Shown: positions 5,101 to 59,039 of the stretch, piece after piece
Numbering within the stretch: position 1 is the stretch's first letter
How the letters are laid out: every line of letters starts with the position of its first letter
Origin: a virus
Lineage: Duplodnaviria; Caudoviricetes
DNA length: 64,000 bases
Virus record (IMG/VR): IMGVR_UViG_3300031555_002371
Span: 32,001-96,000 of that record
Reading direction: 5' to 3' (one strand)
Program-made: the position numbers and the translations under genes
The notes under the pieces: generated by a model
Databases searched by the model: none
The model's input: only the letters and a program-made list of their open reading frames with translations
What the model was told of the DNA's origin: nothing

Positions 5101-5532
5101 ATGGAGCAGATTAAAATTAAATATTTTTCAAAAGAGATTGACAAGATTTCCAAGATGGAAATTGGAGATTGGATTGATTTAAGAGCGGCAGAAGATGTAG
5201 AACTTGCCAAGGGTGAGTTTAAACTGATTAATCTCGGTGTCGGCATGATTCTTCCCAAGGGATACGAGGCTCATGTCGTTCCTCGCAGTAGTACATATAA
5301 AAATTTCGGCATTACTCAGGCAAATCATATGGGGGTTATTGATGAATCTTATTGTGGAGATAACGACCAGTGGAAGTTCCCTGCAAAGGCAGAGCGAGAT
5401 ACAGTTATTCATAAGAATGATAGAATTTGCCAATTCAGAATTGTTGAAAAACAACCAGACCTTGAATTCATTGAGGTTGACCGGCTTGATGGTAAAAATC
5501 GTGGTGGATTCGGAAGTACAGGAATTAATTAA
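5101..5532 (+). CDS. dut: trimeric dUTPase
   Basis: [29 protein letters not shown] motifs. Confidence 0.95.
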
Positions 5533-5584
5533 TCTATAAATAAATTATAGACATTAAATTGATGTCTATGGATATATTAAACGT

Positions 5585-5618
5585 AAAAGCAGTTTATTTT
5601 GTATAAACTGCTTTTATT
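5585..5618 (+). terminator. intrinsic terminator after dut
   Basis: hairpin AAAGCAGTTTAT/ATAAACTGCTTT followed by TATT. Confidence 0.6.
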
Positions 5619-29665: not shown

Positions 29666-32600
29666 TTATTTAGTCCATTGGTATTTATATTTATCAAGCG
29701 GACTTCCACCGTTTATTCTACCAATAGTCATTGCCTGAATCATTTTTTCAAACTTTCCATCTTTTTGAAGTTTAGTTACAAAATCATTGTAATCCTCAAC
29801 TTTCTCAATAGGAATAGTTATCTCGAAATGATTTTCAACATTTGTTTCACCATAGTTTGTAAGAATCTGCGCCAACTTCTCCCCAAAATTAGGAATATTA
29901 TTTCCGTAAGACATCGGAGCGAAAGAAGAATACAAAGGATTTCCAAAACTAACATTATCGGACGCTAATTGCGCGAGAATATCTCTTAACGCAATAAAGT
30001 TTTGAGTATCTTCGGAGTCAAGCACCATTTCAGGCTTGGTCTTTGTACCGTCCATCCATGCAAGACCCGTAAAATCTGCAAGACCACCTTCATTATAAGA
30101 ATTTAACTTATTAAAAAAAGCAGTGGTCATCTCTGAACGTTTATTTTTGTCTGCAAAGTTTACCCATCCACCATCTGTGGAGACAACATAAACAACACCA
30201 TCAAGTCCTGCGAGTGTTTTGGCAGGTGGCTTTGTACCACCAAATAGGTCGTTTAGTTTTCTTTCCGTTGTATCAGATACGGTATTATCTTCGGAATCAT
30301 ATGTTGCAACTTTAAAAGTTTGACCGTCAATTTTGACTTCACAATCATCCCATCCAACACTTGCATCGTTTAATCCAGATACAGAATAGTCTTGCGAGTT
30401 TAAAGTGCCAGTACGTTTTAAGGTACTCTCAAATTTTGGAATATTAATTCCGCCAGGGTTTGATGGAACTTTTGATTCAGTTGTGCCACTTCCACTCGGA
30501 GTGCTACCACTATCAGAACTACCAGTAGAATTGCTTTCATTTCCAGCGTTGACAAGTGCCTCAAGAGCAGAAACAATTATAGATAATGTGTTTTCAATTG
30601 TTGTAACACCAGAGCTTATCGTGTCATTATTTGTACTATAGTCTGAAACAACAGTTTTACACTCATCAACAACCGTCCAAATTGCATCCATCTTATCGGA
30701 CAAAGTAGTATCAACACTCCCCACGGCGGCTTCAAGAGTTTCCTTAATGTCTGACGCATTAGTATTGATAGCAGTAATGGAATCCTTAATTAATGTGCCT
30801 ACATTATCTAATCTGCGATTAAGAATTGACTCATAATCGTCATAAAGATTATCAAGCAACTTCTTTTGGTCTGCAATAAACTGGTCATATTCAGTTTTCT
30901 GAAGTTCTTCTTGTGCTTCCTCCAAATCGACCTTTAACTTTTGAATTTGTGCTTTTGCTTCTTCAGAAGTATCATTTTCATAGGCTATAATTTGCTTTTG
31001 CAAAGTGCCTATTTCTTCGGTGATATCAGAAACTTTATTTCGATAATCATATAAATCCTTGGTAGCATCAAGAGCGTCCTTGTATTTATTAATAAGATTG
31101 TCAAGGGCATCAAGTTCTGCTTCGATACCTTCTTTAACCAAATCAATCATTGCTTGTTTTTCATCCTCTGCGGCAAGCACAGATTCACGCTGCAATTCAA
31201 GCAATTCTTCTTTTCGGTCAATTAAAGTTTGATTTGCTGGATCGTTTGCCAAGTCAGACTCAATTTTTGCAAGTTCATCCGCATATCGCTGAGCTTGTTC
31301 CATATAAACATTATAGTTTACACCATGTAAGCCCATGGCGGCATTACCATATTCGGTTAGCTTGCCATTATCATCAACCATATCCCTGTTATCCAAGAGG
31401 TTAAGCAAGAATTCCGATTCATCGGTTATCTTTTTGATTTCTTCTTGAACATCATCGAACTTTTTCCATTCGAGGTCTCGAATTTTATCTTTCACATTGG
31501 AGAGGGAATTAGCGAGAGCAACCATTTGGGCAATCTGCGCCTCGGTTGCGCCATTAGCCGCGAGAGTTGCTCCATATTCGGCTATGAGTTCATCTACGAG
31601 GCGATCAACTTCATCAGCAGCAATCGCAATTTTACCGCTTGAGAAGTCAAACAAGTTTGCATAATCTTTATTGAGTTTGATTAATTCATTATAAGTTTCT
31701 ACGGAAACAGAGCCGGTATTATTGTACTCGTCGGTTGCGGATTTGAGTTTGCCAATAGTGTTTTGATATGAATTAATTACTTTAGTTAGCGTATCAATGC
31801 CGCTCGTTGATTCTTCAATTTGCTTATTCAACTCATTGTAATATGTTGGGAACTGTGTCGCCATCATATTGTCAATCAAAGTCTGGACATTGTCGCTTGT
31901 TGCCGTTCCGTCAAGCAATAACTGTTTAATATCTTCATTTGCAGCAAGATTATCAATCAACTTTTGTTGATATGCCAAATAAGAATCAACAGAGTCAACA
32001 ACCATTCCACTGATGTCAAGGTTCAATCTTTCCTCAGTGATTGCCCGATTAGCCATAGAAGCGGTTGCTTCATCCAATGTATCAATGATAGCGGAATATT
32101 CTTTTCTATTTTTGACGAGCTTATTATAAACAGCGTTATCATAATGATTAAAGTTGGCATCCGACTCCATTGCTTCGATACATTTTGTTAGTATATCGTA
32201 ATATTCTTGAGCAGTACCAGTATCAAATTCTATGCTGGTTAAAGTTGTTACGAAATTAGAATCCCATTCAGCACTCGCGCCTTCAATAGAATTAATTATT
32301 TTAGCCGCTTCTTCATCCCAGCCATCAACGGTTAACTCTATTCCTCCCCAACTTGAAGCCCATGATGCCCAACCAGAATCTTCGACGTCTCTTACATATG
32401 CATTGTTATAACTTTTTTTAGCCTCTGAATATGCAGCAACAAAGTCTGATTGTTGAGTTTTAACTTCTTCAAGTTGAAGTTGTTTTAATTTAAGTATTTG
32501 GTCATCAAGTTTACCATTTACCAAATCTAAGCCATCAACTTCTCCGCTAACAAGACTATTGATTTCTTTCTGAATATCTCGAATTTCAATTCTTGTATCA

Positions 32601-33358
32601 GCATCAATAAATTCTTGACTTGCTAACTCTTGATATTTTTTAATTAACTGGTCAATTTGTTCTTGTTCTGCTTCATGTTCTTTTGTTATTTCTATTGCCG
32701 CTTCAGCTGCTTCTTTGGATTTTTCGGAAGCATCTACTGCGGCGGTTGATAACTTATTAAATGCTGCGACAACACCAATTATTGCCGCTATTGCTAATAG
32801 CCAAGGATTTGCTGCAAGCGCTGCGGTAAGCCCTTTGACTGCACCCTTGGCAACTACGGTCGCAGATGTAAAGAGTCCAGTTGCGGCAGTAGCACTGGTT
32901 GTTGCTGCGGTAGAGGCAGCTTTTGCCACGGCTTCTTCTGCTTGGGCTTTGGATAACCCTTTATGCATAAGTATCTCGATTTGCTGTTCTTTAGCAAGCG
33001 AAGTTGTTGCTAAAAGCTGCGCCAAAACTGACGCTGACAGGTTGGAGGTTGCAACAGCGGCGGCGATTTGTTCAGCAGTCAGTCCACTGGTTGCAAGAGA
33101 TTCAGCCGTAATCGAATTTGCAAGATTAGTTTTTGTAAGTGCCGCATACAAATCCGCACTCGACATAGTATTCGTTGAAGCGATTAATGTAGCTCTATCT
33201 ACGGATAAACCTTTTTCTTTTAAAATCTGTATCTGTTCGGCGGCAGTTAATTTTGTTTTGGCAAGTGCGGCAACTGTATCTGCAGTAGACATTTTGGCAG
33301 TTGCCACACGAACTGCATCAATGCTTGTAGCTCCTTGTAACCCCAAAATACGTATTTG
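29666..33358 (-). CDS. tape measure protein, exon 3
   Basis: Ala-rich then coiled coil; SYNEGGLADFTGLAWMDGTKTKPEMVL; no SD before the ATG at 33361, whose G fits the intron omega-G. Confidence 0.85.
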   Translation of the reverse strand, partial: QIRILGLQGATSIDAVRVATAKMSTADTVAALAKTKLTAAEQIQILKEKGLSVDRATLIASTNTMSSADLYAALTKTNLANSITAESLATSGLTAEQIAAAVATSNLSASVLAQLLATTSLAKEQQIEILMHKGLSKAQAEEAVAKAASTAATTSATAATGLFTSATVVAKGAVKGLTAALAANPWLLAIAAIIGVVAAFNKLSTAAVDASEKSKEAAEAAIEITKEHEAEQEQIDQLIKKYQELASQEFIDADTRIEIRDIQKEINSLVSGEVDGLDLVNGKLDDQILKLKQLQLEEVKTQQSDFVAAYSEAKKSYNNAYVRDVEDSGWASWASSWGGIELTVDGWDEEAAKIINSIEGASAEWDSNFVTTLTSIEFDTGTAQEYYDILTKCIEAMESDANFNHYDNAVYNKLVKNRKEYSAIIDTLDEATASMANRAITEERLNLDISGMVVDSVDSYLAYQQKLIDNLAANEDIKQLLLDGTATSDNVQTLIDNMMATQFPTYYNELNKQIEESTSGIDTLTKVINSYQNTIGKLKSATDEYNNTGSVSVETYNELIKLNKDYANLFDFSSGKIAIAADEVDRLVDELIAEYGATLAANGATEAQIAQMVALANSLSNVKDKIRDLEWKKFDDVQEEIKKITDESEFLLNLLDNRDMVDDNGKLTEYGNAAMGLHGVNYNVYMEQAQRYADELAKIESDLANDPANQTLIDRKEELLELQRESVLAAEDEKQAMIDLVKEGIEAELDALDNLINKYKDALDATKDLYDYRNKVSDITEEIGTLQKQIIAYENDTSEEAKAQIQKLKVDLEEAQEELQKTEYDQFIADQKKLLDNLYDDYESILNRRLDNVGTLIKDSITAINTNASDIKETLEAAVGSVDTTLSDKMDAIWTVVDECKTVVSDYSTNNDTISSGVTTIENTLSIIVSALEALVNAGNESNSTGSSDSGSTPSGSGTTESKVPSNPGGINIPKFESTLKRTGTLNSQDYSVSGLNDASVGWDDCEVKIDGQTFKVATYDSEDNTVSDTTERKLNDLFGGTKPPAKTLAGLDGVVYVVSTDGGWVNFADKNKRSEMTTAFFNKLNSYNEGGLADFTGLAWMDGTKTKPEMVLDSEDTQNFIALRDILAQLASDNVSFGNPLYSSFAPMSYGNNIPNFGEKLAQILTNYGETNVENHFEITIPIEKVEDYNDFVTKLQKDGKFEKMIQAMTIGRINGGSPLDKYKYQWTK

Positions 33359-33402
33359 CATAAATATATTACAAGGAATTAAGAATAAATCAGAAAAACC
33401 GC

Positions 33403-33431
33403 TTGAAAAACCTCTCGTTTTATGTTATAAT
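33403..33431 (+). promoter_or_regulatory. sigmaA promoter of the intron cargo gene
   Basis: TTGAAA, 17 bp spacer, TGnTATAAT; SD GAAAGGTGGTG follows. Confidence 0.8.
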
Positions 33432-33461
33432 AATATCACCATATGAAAGGTGGTGTCATTA

Positions 33462-33782
33462 ATGAGTGAATATTCAAAGATAATTGGCGAAAGGGAAATG
33501 GTTTGCCCTTATTGCGGACATAATAAATCGAATATACACCAATGTGTAGAAGATAACAATATTTTTGGAGAATGCCAAGGGTGCGGAAGAATGACATTTA
33601 ACGAATTTAATACTTCATCGAATGTAAATAAACCAATTGTTAGATGCCCTTATTGTAATTCTGGAAATACGAGAAAAATTACAAAAGCATCAAAAATCGG
33701 TGGTATTGCACTATTTGGTATTTTTGCTGTTGGCAAATCTACAAAAGAGTGGCATTGTAATGATTGTAAAAGTGATTTCTGA
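33462..33782 (+). CDS. double zinc-ribbon protein with a hydrophobic segment (intron cargo)
   Basis: CPYC..CQGC and CPYC..IGGIALFGIFAVG..CNDC; own SD, promoter and terminator. Confidence 0.85.
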   Translation: MSEYSKIIGEREMVCPYCGHNKSNIHQCVEDNNIFGECQGCGRMTFNEFNTSSNVNKPIVRCPYCNSGNTRKITKASKIGGIALFGIFAVGKSTKEWHCNDCKSDF

Positions 33783-33788
33783 TTATTG

Positions 33789-33821
33789 TGCGCATTGTCT
33801 TTTTAGGCAGTGCGCTTTTTT
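33789..33821 (+). terminator. terminator of the cargo gene
   Basis: GCGCATTGTC/GGCAGTGCGC followed by a T-tract. Confidence 0.8.
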
Positions 33822-34248
33822 GTACATTGGAACATACATTAATAGTAAATAAAATATGGCTTTCATTTACTACAAGGAATGGTGTTCTCTGAACGTTCTT
33901 ATCATAAAAATTCTTATCCCGACATTGCTTGCACAATTGCTACTATCGGATTATACAATTAAACCTTTCGGCTGATAAGTGCGCTGCTCGTTACCAATTG
34001 TATATCTGTCCGGCATTATTTTTTAGCCGTAGAAAACTTACTCCCATGTACTAATGGTTTGACTTATTTACCTTGTTTTTCGGCTACTTCAAATAGAGAA
34101 GTGTAGTAAGTATTATGGTTTCAAGCAATTTCTCCTTTTGTTATTTTAGAACTTTCATCCTATGGAATTATTTTTATCGCCATTATGATAAATCTTCTCC
34201 CATAGTAGACCAAACACATTTTGGGATGTGTTATAACTTTTTAGGTTA

Positions 34249-34821
34249 ATCGAGGTTCTTTACAAACGCATAAATTCCAACGCCTGCGATTGCTATGTTC
34301 AACATCCCAAACGTATCAATAATCCAATTCAATACGTTTAACAATGTTGTCCCAGTATCAATTAAACCGCCAAGCATATCATCGTCAAGAATTGTTTGAG
34401 ATAAATCTTGCCATGCAGCTTTAAATTGATTGACTTTTGCTTCAAGACTTTCAAGCCATTTCTCATGCTCTGATAAGGCTGAGCCTTTGGAGTTTTCAGA
34501 AGTATCTAATACACTTCTTGCTACATCAAAGTTGGTCATCAAAGACGAGAACACGTTGCCCTGTCTTTTACCAGCCAGTAATTCTTGAATACTTGCTCGC
34601 TGAATATCAGATAAGTTTTCCCATTTTTCTGAAAGCTCATCTAAAATATCATATGTTGATTTGAATGTGTTTTCATCAAGCATGATATCAACACCGGACA
34701 AGGCGAGAATTTCTTCTCTTAATATAGCCGTTGATTCAGCCATACCGTCTATTTCGAGTCCTGCGGCTTCAAGTTCTGTTTTAGCCGCACGAATTCTCAT
34801 GCTTATGGTTTTAAACGCTGT
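34249..34821 (-). CDS. tape measure protein, exon 2
   Basis: TAFKTISMRIRAAKTEL..FKSTYDIL..AGKRQGNV..SLEAKVNQFKAAWQ continues the core of exon 1. Confidence 0.9.
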
Positions 34822-36088
34822 CAGTCTGTTACTTTCGGTTTTCACCTACTGACCATACAATAATATATGGCGGTTAGTCATTTCTGGCTAACTCTGCAAT
34901 TTCATTTTCAGATTATAGTTGCAGCTCGGACTGTATCTTCTCACAATAACGAAACTCATTATGTTGCCATAAAGAGTATTACAGTCTCTAAGGATTCTTT
35001 ATAGATGTTGATTTATAGATATGTCAAATGATTAGGCATTAACTCTATCTATCTTGATATGGTAAAATGATATTTTCATTTAATTCTAATTTGTTATGTT
35101 TTATATGATAATTAAAGGAATGATAATTGGGAAGTATTCCTTTTGATTTGATGTATCGTTTTATCAATCTCTTACATAAATATGGGCGGTTATATATATC
35201 ATCTTCCCACAAATATAATATCTCGACATTATAATTATTTTTTATGTAAGTATGTTTTGCTTTGTCTTTTGGAATTCTTTTCTGTTGGATTGAATTAATA
35301 TTGCCAGTATATTTTAGTGGATTGCTATGCCAAAAATCTCCCATAACTTCAATAATTAAATTAGACTCAAATAAATAATTATCTACACAGTAATATTTAT
35401 AAGACTTCTCATTAATATATCCAACATTCATTTTTTCCAACATATCATTAACACTTTTTTGCGGTTTGGTGTTTGTACTAATAGAACCGATTTCTAAAAT
35501 TTTTGTTGCACGAATTCTCGATTTTTCTTTCCATGAATCTTGTTGAGACCAAACATTTGAATACCAATCTCTACGACATTTATCCGAGCAAAATAAACGT
35601 TGACCATTTTTAGTTTTATACTTTTTAACGATAATTTCTTTCCCACAACATTCACAACTGGCTTTTTCTCTCGTATATCTCGAATTCTTTTCTCCTGTTT
35701 GAAGTTTTTGCCACTCCTTTTGACAATAGGTAGAGCATAAGGTTTGTGTTGAACGTTTGCTAACCTCAAACTCCTTGTTACAAATTAAACATTTTCTTGT
35801 TTCGTGCGTTTCTTTATGTTGAAATTCTTTTTGACACTTGCCACTACAATAATGATGTTTTGCGCGATTATATTGTGTCCTTGTTTGCGTTATTATTTTC
35901 CCACAATTCTCGCACTCAACAAATAATAAATGTGTACATTCTTTTGCTATATAAACATCTCCTTTTTCTTATAAAAAACACGTCCTTCCTAATTGACGTG
36001 TTACAACATCTATAAAGTCTTTCCTCGGTCTTGACCATCTCTGGCTTTTAACCGATATAGTTATTTTTAAAGTCGGCAGTATTCGTTT
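34822..36088 (-). mobile_element. group I intron 1 (IA-like) with homing endonuclease
   Basis: P1 AGTCGGT/GCCGACT with U.G wobble; P6 extension CTTTATAGATGTTG/CAACATCTATAAAG encloses the ORF; P7 GAGACTGT/ACAGTCC; omega-G at 34822; splicing restores QDADSVG|TAFKTISMR. Confidence 0.92.
35045..35950 (-). CDS. intron-encoded homing endonuclease: 3 Cys4 zinc fingers plus Vsr/EDxHD-like nuclease, ATA start
   Basis: Frame open from an ATA 8 nt after AAGGAG; CENC..CSGKC, CLIC..CSTYC, CECC..CSDKC; IEVMGDFWH..ILYLWEDDI. Confidence 0.8.
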   Translation of the reverse strand: MAKECTHLLFVECENCGKIITQTRTQYNRAKHHYCSGKCQKEFQHKETHETRKCLICNKEFEVSKRSTQTLCSTYCQKEWQKLQTGEKNSRYTREKASCECCGKEIIVKKYKTKNGQRLFCSDKCRRDWYSNVWSQQDSWKEKSRIRATKILEIGSISTNTKPQKSVNDMLEKMNVGYINEKSYKYYCVDNYLFESNLIIEVMGDFWHSNPLKYTGNINSIQQKRIPKDKAKHTYIKNNYNVEILYLWEDDIYNRPYLCKRLIKRYIKSKGILPNYHSFNYHIKHNKLELNENIILPYQDR

Positions 36089-37693
36089 ACCGACTGAATC
36101 TGCATCTTGCACTACGGTATTTGCCGCAGTAATAAGAGCAATAGATTCATCAAGCGTATTATTTGCAGCGGCTAATGAAGAAGCAGACCTTTGGAGTGCT
36201 TCACCAATACTGCCTGACGAAATAGCAAAGTTATTACCTACTGCATTAAACTTATCAACAATTGTTATTGCATCATCAGCTTCAATCTTAAACGCAGCCA
36301 TTGTGGATATAATGCTTTGTGTTGCGGCATCAATATTTTCTATTTCATCACCAACAACAGAATAAATGTTGGCGACCTCTGCCAGCGATTCAGATTCCGA
36401 AAAACTAAAACCTAAACGAGCAAAATCTGCTGTTGACTTAACCAATTCAGAAATAGTTGTTCCAAGTTTTTGAGCTTTTTTCCCGGCATTATCAAGAAAT
36501 TTATCATATGTTTCATCAGTTTCGTCCGTAACCTTTTTTAATTCGGTCATGGCAGTATTAACATTATAAACATTTTGAAACATCTGTTTAAAAGCATTTA
36601 CAATTTGATAAATTGCGGTTGAAACACCAACATATCTCCAAATACTCTTAAATGCTGCGGTTAATTGAGTACCAAATGACTTACCAGTCTTTCCCGCAAG
36701 CTGAGCCTGAACTTTAATGTCTCTAAATTCTTGCTCAATAGTATCTAATTTGATTTTTGAATCTTCACACGAACCATCAAGCTCTGATAACCTTTTGCGA
36801 AGTTTTTCAATGTCCGCACCAAAATCATTTGTAGCCTTTGTGTTTTTTTGCAACCAAGATGAAATCTGGTTATCTAATGAGTTGATTTGGGATAGACTTA
36901 CAAAACTTTTTGTTTCAGATGTAATGGTCGCAAGTGTATTTCTAACCCTTTGCAAAACATTATTGTATTCAGTATAACTCGTAACCAACGAGGTAGGGTC
37001 TGTTGCGCCTTTCATAGCGGTTTGTAATTTTTCAAGCTTCGCTAAATCATCTTTTACAAGAGATAACTTCTTGTGTTCTCCTGCTCCAAGTTTTTCGTAT
37101 TGCGCGGCGACTTTTGCAATCGAAGCCTCGATGCCACCATTTTTAAGTTGTGCTTTAATTTGATTTACTAACGCTTGTGAATCTGTTGCAACTGTAGAAA
37201 GAGAGTTTTTTACTCTTGCTAAAACATCGTTATACTTTGTATAACTTGTAACCAAGGTTGTTGAATCTGTGGCGTTGCTCATGGCGGCTTGTAATCTTCC
37301 AAGCTCCGCTAAATCTTTCTCTATAAGAGATAACTTACCGTGTCCTGTTGTGCCAAGTTTTTCGTATTGCGCAGTAACTTTGGCAATTGATGATTCAATA
37401 CCACCATTATTAAGCTGCGTATTAATTCGATTTACTAACGCTTGTGAAAAAGACTGCCCAGCAGTTTTTCCTGCGTTTTGCATCTGACTATCAACATTAG
37501 CCATCTTTATACCATCAAGACTGATAGTAAATCTATGGTTATCTAATGATGCCTGAATTTGAGACGGGAGACCACTCGTATCGAGTCTAATCTTTCTCAA
37601 AACAAGCGTGTTATCTCTTGATATTTTTTGAAGTTGGGAGGGTATTTTGGAAGCATCTAATTCCGCTAATATTCTTGCTCTAAAATCAGACAT
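36089..37693 (-). CDS. tape measure protein, exon 1
   Basis: VNTAMTELKKVTD, STADFARLGF, VDKFNAVGNNFAISS, TP901-type tape measure core. Confidence 0.92.
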
Positions 37694-54085: not shown

Positions 54086-54161
54086 TGGTTGCGGAGGTGG
54101 GATTTGAACCCACGTCCTCCAGGCTTATGAGACCGGCAAGCTACCGCTGCTCTACTCCGCA
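54086..54161 (-). tRNA. tRNA-Met(CAT), initiator-like with an irregular anticodon stem
   Basis: TGCGGAG/CTCCGCA acceptor, CTCATAA loop, TTCAAAT T-loop, CCA. Confidence 0.8.
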
Positions 54162-58315: not shown

Positions 58316-58393
58316 ATGGTTTATACCATCCTTTGCTTTTAAATTAACGACCCGACTGGTTGTGCATCGTTGAGAGGCGTGTCGGGTTCTGTT

Positions 58394-58468
58394 TGGAGCT
58401 GGCGATAGGAGTCGAACCTACAACCTGCTGATTACAAGTCAGCTGCTCTGCCATTGAGCCACGCCAGC
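58394..58468 (-). tRNA. tRNA-Thr(TGT)
   Basis: cloverleaf, GCTGA-CTTGTAA-TCAGC, CCA. Confidence 0.95.
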
Positions 58469-58529
58469 ATATAACATTCGCTATAACCCGAATGTTTACC
58501 TCGTGAGAGGGTTTGCTTTTCGCAATGAT

Positions 58530-58606
58530 TGGTGATGGCAACGGGAATTGAACCCATATTACGACCTTGAAAGGGTCGTGTCCTATACCGTTTAGACGAT
58601 GCCACC
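58530..58606 (-). tRNA. tRNA-Glu(TTC)
   Basis: CGACC-CTTTCAA-GGTCG, CCA. Confidence 0.92.
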
Positions 58607-58609
58607 ATT

Positions 58610-58685
58610 TGGCTCTCTGTGTAGGCATCGAACCTACTACCCACTGGTTAACAGCCAGTTGCTCTACCGATTGAGCTAACAGAGA
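58610..58685 (-). tRNA. tRNA-Asn(GTT)
   Basis: ACTGG-CTGTTAA-CCAGT, CCA. Confidence 0.95.
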
Positions 58686-58868
58686 ATATAGAGATATGCG
58701 AACATATCTTATAATGCTTTTCTTTCAGATTTCTCCTATTCGAGAATTGGTTCAACACTAACCATTTTTGCCAAACCCTACGCTATCACTTCCTCGACCA
58801 AGCAATAGTCATCATCGGTTGACAACATCTCATGTATGTTGTCTTGTCGGCATACCGACCCTGGCTGT

Positions 58869-58943
58869 TGGCGACTCATAAGGGAATCGAACCCATATCT
58901 TCGGAGAGACAGTCCGATGTAATAGCCTTTATACCAATGAGCC
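58869..58943 (-). tRNA. tRNA-Asp(GTC)
   Basis: TCGGA-CTGTCTC-TCCGA, CCA. Confidence 0.9.
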
Positions 58944-58952
58944 ATATATTTG

Positions 58953-59039
58953 TGGTGGGTAGGGTAGGATTTGAACCTACGAAGCCGTAAGGCAACGGTT
59001 TTACAGACCGCCCGCTTTGAACCACTTGCATACCTACCC
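58953..59039 (-). tRNA. tRNA-Tyr(GTA)
   Basis: GCGGT-CTGTAAA-ACCGT, long variable arm, CCA. Confidence 0.95.

Follow-up and report, generated by a model that had tools for sequence, protein, structure and literature searches.

The tape measure gene of a phage from the IMG/VR collection (record IMGVR_UViG_3300031555_002371, 156 kb, genome completeness estimated at 100%) is interrupted by an 890-nucleotide (nt) stretch that is very probably a group I intron able to splice itself, with a long P10 helix, carrying in antisense orientation a zinc-ribbon gene that could be expressed independently. The interruption lies within the 64,000 nt that we analysed, bases 32001–96000 of the record, which we call the window; coordinates without a prefix refer to it, and L numbers denote related loci. 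The case was made by comparing sequences. It draws on a conserved fold, the geometry of the predicted splice sites, an allele that lacks the intron, and a carried gene that is conserved and constrained as coding sequence, and from these we infer splicing as well as the expression and role of that gene.

Results

A tape measure gene in three pieces

Three open reading frames (ORFs) lie on the minus strand at the tape measure locus (35969–37693, 34246–34845 and 29666–33361). The Pfam domain PhageMin_Tail is divided between the first two, with model positions 2–136 in the first and 136–200 in the second, and the distant unsplit tape measure proteins P0026, P0028, P0029 and P0038 are colinear with the second and third. 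The tape measure gene therefore appears to be in three pieces, separated by gaps of 1267 and 890 nt. The 890-nt gap, occupied by putative intron 2 (Table 1), opens with a TAA right after the codons for ..FVKNLD and closes with an ATG right before CAA; in the window no Shine-Dalgarno sequence is found ahead of this ATG, which overlaps the 3′ end of the intron. Homologues of the exon 3 piece are mostly called from M-Q-[IL]-[RK]-I-L-G-L-Q-G-A-T-S, which at first resembled a true gene start. Standard annotation indeed makes two genes here, as an earlier note on this DNA had said it would, and database calls of the downstream piece begin with MQIR.. or at spurious upstream codons.

In the relative L005 the gene is uninterrupted at the predicted site (..IKDFE-QLKILGLQGATS..), so that the junction KNLD-QIRILG, predicted in the earlier note, has a counterpart, KDFE-QLKILG, that is read through in an intron-less phage. 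L012, L013, L031, L043 and L049 are likewise uninterrupted at the point between exons 2 and 3. Exon 2 of the window is homologous to L001:4543-5115, which is contiguous there with exon 1; L001 has no intron 1, yet an 885-nt gap with an antisense zinc-ribbon gene separates its exons 2 and 3. The same gap is present in L007, where the triplet before exon 3 is TAG. The first ~450 nt of the gap are 67–85% identical among phages whose flanking protein pieces share 30–76% identity.

A search with a conserved 40-nt motif of this core returned nine stretches (on eight contigs) from bacterial genomes and 28 from viral contigs. In 35 of these 37 stretches an exon 2 homologue of the tape measure gene ends about 300 nt before the motif; the other two are without enough upstream flank. 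More than 30 phage or prophage loci of Clostridia have the ~450-nt core behind one and the same tape measure codon, and its bacterial carriers include Ruminococcus sp. YE282, Lacrimispora sp. HJ-01, Enterocloster lavalensis, [Clostridium] asparagiforme, a Clostridium species and Lachnospiraceae. It is single-copy in the phage studied here, and a blastn search of the region against 50,697 GenBank phages gave one weak exon match and no related intron. As the phage genome encodes tyrosine recombinases and the RNA core occurs in Clostridia chromosomes, a temperate lifestyle is likely; the hosts are probably Lachnospiraceae-like.

Several further interruptions were seen in and around this part of the gene. 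Intron 1 of the window contains endonuclease-like coding sequence in two frames (35494–35769 and 35045–35443), which may be one frameshifted ORF or two ORFs. The intron-less relative L005 has a different insertion of 1.67 kb in the middle of exon 2 (L005:2231-3897). In L030, L048, L050, L052 and L055 the tape measure homologue is broken a few codons away, after ..KNVG or ..KGIG, by unrelated inserts, none of them named by Rfam (at ~5500–5600 in each locus, and at 2469 in L030). This part of the tape measure gene appears to be a hot spot of intervening sequences. Finally, on the contig JAFTFU010000002.1 of a Clostridia metagenome-assembled genome (L088, L093) the core motif occurs in two retrieved stretches, each behind a tape measure exon 2 homologue, and these may be two elements or one site retrieved twice.

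Splice sites and a long P10

The predicted 5′ splice site lies in P1, where the end of exon 2 pairs with the internal guide. All 10 sequences share the U.G wobble at the splice site; the neighbouring pair covaries (AU in seven, CG in two, GC in one), exon GAU, GCU or GGU being matched by guide GUC, GGC or GCC. A second helix, absent from the earlier model, would form between the intron and exon 2 positions −10 to −5; it shows a G:C to A:U switch (four versus six sequences) at a synonymous Lys codon position, with one C-A mismatch in the window itself, and may compensate for the short exon part of P1.

At the 3′ end, a terminal G stands directly before the first in-frame codon of exon 3 in all 11 introns compared. 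The triplet that ends in this G is ATG in four loci, TTG in two, ACG in two, and GTG, TAG and AGG in one each, and none of the 11 loci has a ribosome binding site before exon 3. These triplets bear on the alternative that the tape measure is naturally encoded by two genes with a moron between them (morons being phage accessory genes with their own promoter and terminator in late operons, such as the Ltp-type superinfection exclusion genes), in which case the conserved RNA would be another element, e.g., one regulating the downstream gene in cis. In its favour, databases mostly start the homologues of the downstream piece at M-Q-[IL]-[RK], and the arrangement is conserved across many phages. 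In several relatives, however, the triplet before exon 3 is TAG, AGG or ACG, with no ribosome binding site. Further points against it are that the elements of the RNA are ordered and connected as in a group I core, that the U.G falls exactly at the end of exon 2 and the G exactly before exon 3, that the guide pairs with both exon ends, and that L005 and the distant tape measure proteins are uninterrupted here. We rejected the two-gene tape measure on the TAG, AGG and ACG triplets and the intron-less allele, and consider it extremely improbable. As a general reading it is excluded by the non-start triplets, the missing ribosome binding sites and the cognate guide pairing, which together fix phase 0 for the 3′ splice site of every locus; the earlier note had assigned both splice sites to phase 0.

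The bases of the guide upstream of its P1 part pair with the start of exon 3 as P10. In the window, guide positions 34225–34211 and exon 3 positions +1 to +19 would pair at about 17 positions, interrupted by a single two-base bulge (−17 to −19 kcal/mol); nowhere in the 5.9 kb downstream does the guide have a better partner than the start of exon 3. Across the family P10 measures ~10–21 bp and is the top-scoring downstream partner in seven of nine loci; in L057, 21 contiguous bp span 4.7 kb. Four unrelated guide sequences occur, each complementary to its own exon 3: guide CCCAAAA with exon 3 UUUUGGG, guide UACUUCCUAC with exon 3 GUAGGAAGUA, guide UUGCCUAGAU.. with exon 3 ..AUCUAGGCAA, and guide UUCCGAGG with exon 3 CCUCGGAA. 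Cognate duplexes of guide and exon 3 reach −13 to −29 kcal/mol, compared with −2 to −10 kcal/mol for combinations between most clades and up to −14 kcal/mol in a few cells. The guide even tracks synonymous codon choice in exon 3 (GAC CUC GGA versus GAU CUA GGC). An unusually long P10 had been proposed from the window alone; with four guide types, each matched to its own exon, it is also seen to covary.

Fold and covariation of the ribozyme core

All helix coordinates and sequences of the earlier note, including the splice sites GAT/TAA and ATG/CAA and the guide (34225-34208), were found to be exact. We aligned ten diverged cores (alignment A4) and folded them with RNAalifold, which was given no prior model; P7 was added afterwards as a pseudoknot. 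The program returned P1, P2, P3, P4, an extended P5 domain, P6/6a/6b and P8. Over the 87 proposed pairs, 97.1% of the cells hold standard pairs, versus 35–45% when the partners are slid by one to three columns, and both-sided changes occur in 38 of the 87 pairs, versus 1–9 in the slid controls, a number reached in none of 500 shuffles. The group I core order P3-[P4-P6]-P7-P3′-P8-P7′ with the P3/P7 pseudoknot is present, its helices 97–100% paired and with compensated changes. In P7, the predicted guanosine-binding site, the pair G 33887–C 33830 is invariant in the ten sequences, with a bulged A or C beside it; five sequences have G:C as the closing pair and the other five A:U, and L028 has two compensated changes. 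P8 has six pairs with changes on both sides. Compensatory changes in the helices, in P1 and in P10 point to ongoing selection for pairing, and comparison of fold, splice-site geometry and covariation supports the assignment of the RNA as a group I intron.

Beyond P7, a hairpin of the intron RNA in the P9 position is the same hairpin as the terminator of the antisense gene, and equivalents exist in L024 and L047; the terminator may thus double as P9. The AATGTA/TATATT helix that had been thought to loop out the cargo gene did not hold up, since it amounts to −4.6 kcal/mol, no better than non-cognate controls. Any other pairing of sequence after P7 with the 3′ end of the intron was rejected likewise, the cognate combinations being no better than the non-cognate ones.

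An antisense zinc-ribbon gene beside the 3′ splice site

According to the earlier note, the opposite strand carries a 106-codon zinc-ribbon gene that has a promoter and a terminator of its own; we could locate the ORF, the promoter, the ribosome binding site and the terminator (Table 1). Both promoter hexamers are conserved in L001 and L007, where the first reads TTGACA and TTGGCA, respectively. The gene is under purifying selection (pairwise dN/dS 0.24–0.47), with synonymous sites saturated (dS > 1). Its C-terminal 50 residues are near-invariant (CPYC..K.I..SK.G..ALFGIF..GK..K.WHCN.CKSDF) and the N-terminal zinc ribbon is variable. Selection, promoter and conserved domain together mark it as a genuine gene. 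In the window the conserved part contains CPYC..IALFGIFAVGK..WHCNDC, enclosing a hydrophobic stretch of ~13 amino acids (aa). An AlphaFold2 model of the protein has a mean pLDDT of 71, with low confidence (below 50) for the hydrophobic stretch.

That no endonuclease resides in the P9 region agrees with our searches, in which the protein matched zinc-ribbon families only. Motifs of LAGLIDADG, GIY-YIG, HNH, His-Cys or PD-(D/E)xK endonucleases or of maturases were not found in it, Foldseek against the PDB gave only generic Rpb9/TFIIS-like zinc ribbons (E 0.09 or worse), PADLOC gave no match to defence systems, and PHROGs only a weak match to 'zinc-finger domain protein', with uninformative source names. 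The pattern of CxxC, hydrophobic stretch and HxCxxC recalls the LITAF-like zinc ribbons that dip into the membrane, which we take as a lead only: Pfam gave no match to PF10601, and the Atlas lead stood at 0.85 only. A prophage-expressed accessory protein that associates with the membrane is our tentative, rather doubtful suggestion for its role; expression would then be in lysogeny, and an action at the membrane, e.g., in superinfection exclusion, is speculative, as is the defence role raised in the earlier note.

By profile search, the C-terminal domain is present in 2561 protein clusters, always at the C-terminus of small proteins. It also occurs outside introns, for example beside an HTH repressor near the integrase gene in prophages, or antisense upstream of tape measure genes. 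Two more antisense paralogues were seen in L051 (L051:2614-3319; also in L095 and L106). They sit where the tape measure gene begins or ahead of it, ~2 kb upstream from exon 2, and because of such paralogues the family is not confined to the intron.

A variable cargo bay

The zinc-ribbon gene adjoins the 3′ splice site in all ten other members whose 3′ end was examined, and its C-terminal domain was picked up shortly downstream of the core in further loci. The bay that separates the gene from the core measures 0 to ~10 kb. The intron holds only the zinc-ribbon gene in the window and in L001, L007 and L028 (~830–890 nt), no further ORF was found in the 1.1-kb intron of L051, and in L054 (1.7 kb) the zinc-ribbon protein is longer, with 219 aa. 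In L015 (1.8 kb) there is a gene for a PemK/MazF-like toxin. The 4.2-kb intron of L056 contains genes for a PBECR3 nuclease, an HTH protein and a Bro-N/KilAC antirepressor as well as two skipping-rope RNAs, and that of L057 (4.7 kb) contains a YbjQ-domain protein and unknown ORFs. The intron of L096, from Lacrimispora, has a length of ~3.9 kb, and L046 with L011, which are on one contig, enclose ~11.5 kb with a tail-collar protein and an IS66 transposase. The expectation that related phages would combine a conserved core with variable cargo was met by the bay, whose contents differ from locus to locus; it did not extend to the zinc-ribbon gene itself, which is a resident of the intron.

Two of these loci deserve separate mention. 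In L056 the tandem skipping-rope RNAs (RF02924, 77 and 60 bits; L056:6652-6838) lie beside the PBECR3 nuclease gene and the HTH/antirepressor pair. On the contig IMGVR_UViG_2547132519_000001 (L046, L011) the core is ~11.5 kb from a matching exon 3, with a P10 of −21.5 kcal/mol, and this may be a giant intron or a decaying prophage.

The constant place of the zinc-ribbon gene raises the alternative that the intron splices and the gene serves its maintenance, mobility or regulation rather than being a moron that benefits host or phage; in one version the antisense transcript or protein would control splicing and hence the timing of the tape measure. In the ten other members the gene is always antisense beside the 3′ splice site, whatever the further cargo, its promoter is ~60–100 nt from the splice site, and its mRNA complements the intron RNA over the 3′ third. 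On the other hand, it has no nuclease or maturase motif and matches generic zinc ribbons only, its C-terminal domain is found in more than 2500 protein clusters, and the domain also occupies non-intron positions in prophages, beside HTH repressors and upstream of tape measure genes. We consider an intron-serving gene, in either version, unlikely.

Table 1. Predicted features of the tape measure locus (coordinates in the window)
Feature	Coordinates	Strand	Description
Tape measure exon 2	34249..34821	−	~191 codons, ends ..FVKNLD; last 3 nt, GAU, are the exon strand of P1
Tape measure exon 3	29666..33358	−	1230 codons; starts CAA AUA CGU (QIR)
Putative group I intron 2	33359..34248	−	890 nt; 5′ splice site 34249/34248, 3′ splice site 33359/33358; terminal G at 33359
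Putative intron 1, same gene	34822..36088	−	Sense-strand endonuclease-like ORFs; exons 1 and 2 contiguous in L001 (4542/4543)
Internal guide	34208..34225	−	GUC (34210-34208) is the partner of exon 2 GAU; the 15 nt upstream of it form P10 with exon 3
Exon 2 segment GAACCU	34253..34258	−	Pairs with AAGUUC 34149-34154; encloses P1 and P2; from RNAalifold
P2 and P2a hairpin	34160..34205	−	8 and 4 pairs; both-sided changes in 8 of 12
P3 5′ strand, P4, extended P5 domain (P5, P5a-d), P6/6a/6b	33909..34137	−	Covariation in every helix
P3		−	AAGGAG with TTCCTT; sequence check
P4	34122-34127 with 33985-33990	−	TGCTTG with CGAGCA; sequence check
Catalytic core	33829..33889	−	Order: P7 5′ strand, P3 3′ strand, P8 hairpin, J8/7, P7 3′ strand UGUUCC
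P7	33883-33889 with 33829-33834	−	GAGAACA with TGTTCC; A 33888 bulged
P8		−	GTAGTAAAT with ATTTACTAT; sequence check
Intrinsic terminator	33790..33815	+	11 pairs, then a T run; the sole terminator-like site in the region
Antisense cargo gene	33462..33782	+	106 aa; N-terminal zinc ribbon and conserved C-terminal zinc ribbon enclosing a short hydrophobic stretch
Sigma-70-type promoter	33403..33431	+	TTGAAA-17 nt-TATAAT with TG extension, matching at 11 of 12 positions; ATG 33462 is preceded by AGGTGG as ribosome binding site

Other RNA features of the window

At gathering thresholds, Rfam reported only tRNAs and an abiF RNA in the window. The abiF motif (RF03085, 42.4 bits) lies at 58350–58386 on the minus strand and abuts a tRNA gene cluster at 58397–59039; an additional tRNA gene is at 54089–54161.

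Discussion

We propose that late transcription would yield a pre-mRNA from which the intron excises itself. The first ~420 nt would fold into the ribozyme, with P1, P2, P3-P8 and a hairpin in the P9 position. The exon 2 GAU paired with the guide GUC would set the U.G wobble at the 5′ splice site, the second helix (exon positions −10 to −5 with 34149–34154) helping to anchor exon 2. After guanosine attack at this site, the long P10 would pull in the distant 3′ splice site, the terminal G (33359) would enter the G-binding site in P7, and the exons would be joined in phase 0 to give ..KNLD-QIRILG... The long P10 may allow the ribozyme to reach a 3′ splice site that is possibly kilobases away. The 3′ 470 nt would be a non-ribozyme part that holds the cargo gene. 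As this gene has a host-type promoter, a ribosome binding site and a terminator of its own, it could be made independently of late tail-gene transcription, and because it is antisense it could not be translated from the pre-mRNA.

Several observations weigh against this proposal. The covariance model of group I introns in Rfam (RF00028), suggested in the earlier note as a check, missed its threshold: it scored 11.4 bits against a cut-off of 50 (E ~5), over model positions 60–145 only, and gave no match for the divergent member L041. At the gathering threshold it was found in none of 12 related loci and nowhere in the whole 156-kb genome. The sub-threshold alignment, although non-significant, places the P4-P6/J6/7 part on 33886–34127 and agrees with the P4 and P7 of the earlier note; as Rfam stays below threshold, membership in group I rests on manually assigned architecture and on covariation. 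Near the 3′ splice site, neither P9.0 nor a closing helix could be found in conserved form, and the exon side of P1 has only 3 bp. The guide region (34208–34235, minus strand) can form a local hairpin (ACACAU..AUGUGU) that would compete with P10, its loop and 3′ arm being P10 bases; equivalents are present in all clades, which suggests a conformational switch between P1 and P10. The strong cargo promoter could, by convergent transcription, interfere with the pre-mRNA. Lastly, in the window exon 3 begins right after an ATG, and its independent translation is conceivable for this phage; the lack of a Shine-Dalgarno sequence is a counterweight.

Some of these points would also fit a relic that no longer splices, with the tape measure broken or made as two proteins in a defective, prophage-like genome. 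The core is not recognised by Rfam, exon 3 of the window could in principle start at ATG 33361, and the exons of L046 with L011 lie 11.5 kb apart, with an IS66 element in between. A relic would not be expected, however, to keep its core at 67–85% identity while synonymous sites of the cargo gene are saturated, nor to show compensatory changes in every helix and in P1 and P10 relative to the exons. The genome is estimated to be complete, and several relatives have no start codon for exon 3. We regard a relic as quite improbable.

Group I introns are known from phage capsid, tail and terminase genes, with examples in td, nrdB and sunY of T4, the DNA polymerase gene of SPO1, the terminase genes of LL-H and Moonbeam, and the capsid and tail genes of Cluster J mycobacteriophages (PMC3706429, PMC4299906, PMC3984707). 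The element described here resembles them in interrupting an essential gene in frame, in its U.G, terminal G and P3-P8 core, and in the existence of intron-less alleles. Known phage introns, in contrast, are without an ORF or carry a sense-strand homing endonuclease in a peripheral loop, whereas here an antisense non-endonuclease gene with its own promoter and terminator follows the core. Their P10 has a few bp, compared with ~10–21 bp here, and the Rfam threshold is not reached by our element.

Closer in layout are the IStrons (CdISt1 and those of Bacillus cereus), which combine a group I intron with an IS200/605 element bearing forward-strand ORFs, their ribozyme being of type IA2 with P7.1/P7.2 (PMC4227781). 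As in IStrons, the predicted ribozyme is 5′ and the foreign DNA 3′, downstream of P9, the 3′ splice site is remote and the size of the cargo varies. Unlike in IStrons, no transposase is present in 33359–34248; the cargo is an antisense zinc-ribbon gene with assorted accessory genes, and the lineage occupies one site in one gene family. There is also no counterpart of P7.1/P7.2, as P3′ (33874–33878) runs straight into P8 (33873 onward), and the IS66 element of one relative belongs to a different family from the IS200/605 elements of IStrons.

Giant group I introns with several genes, such as ND5-717, are found in the mitochondria of corallimorpharians and hexacorals (PMC6545197). They too enclose kilobases of unrelated functional genes in a group I intron; unlike our element, they are organellar, carry conserved mitochondrial genes on the sense strand and are processed unconventionally, by back-splicing. 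Antisense protein genes, in turn, are known from nuclear rDNA group I introns such as L2066, which contain homing endonuclease genes on the opposite strand (PMC9548176). The opposite-strand placement is shared with the element studied here, but those introns are eukaryotic and their His-Cys box homing endonucleases serve mobility, whereas the phage gene encodes a non-nuclease under a bacterial promoter and terminator. To our knowledge, no multi-gene giant group I intron has been reported for phages or bacteria. A full-text literature search, with incomplete coverage, likewise returned no phage or bacterial group I intron with an independently promoted antisense non-endonuclease gene or a bay of variable accessory genes.

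The cargo gene resembles a moron in being a predicted self-contained transcription unit within a virion gene cluster, and its family is also found at other prophage positions. It differs from morons in lying inside a coding sequence, where the ribozyme would render it harmless. Among known morons, Ltp of phage TP-J34 targets the tape measure protein.

Taking the relatives together, we cautiously favour the view that an intron lineage fixed at one tape measure codon in Clostridia phages has become a gene-carrying platform, made up of a 5′ ribozyme, a resident antisense gene and a bay for kilobases of accessory modules (toxin-like genes of the MazF and PBECR3 kinds, a repressor with its antirepressor, skipping-rope RNAs, IS66), which would be spliced out through a P10 that co-evolves with the exon. 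Should the members of 4–5 kb (L056, L057, L096) and of 11.5 kb (L046 with L011) undergo splicing in cis, no group I intron known outside organelles would come near them in size, and they would represent an unrecognised means for phages to lodge morons within essential coding sequence. The long covarying P10 suggests how a ribozyme could select a 3′ splice site kilobases away, which may be relevant to ribozyme engineering. Because gene callers and Rfam miss these introns, many tape measure genes of gut Clostridia phages are probably annotated as fragments. The resident zinc-ribbon domain belongs to a large uncharacterised family of over 2500 clusters. Candidates for cultivable lysogens are Ruminococcus sp. 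YE282 (intron of ~0.9 kb), Lacrimispora sp. HJ-01 (~3.9 kb), Enterocloster lavalensis KCTC 15153 (~1.7 kb) and [Clostridium] asparagiforme DSM 15981 (~1.1 kb).

The usual picture of phage accessory genes places them between other genes. In the present case the inside of an essential virion gene seems to have been made a safe harbour for independently transcribed genes by a ribozyme. If true, this would be a new route by which phages acquire morons, and would give group I introns a role beyond the carriage of homing endonucleases.

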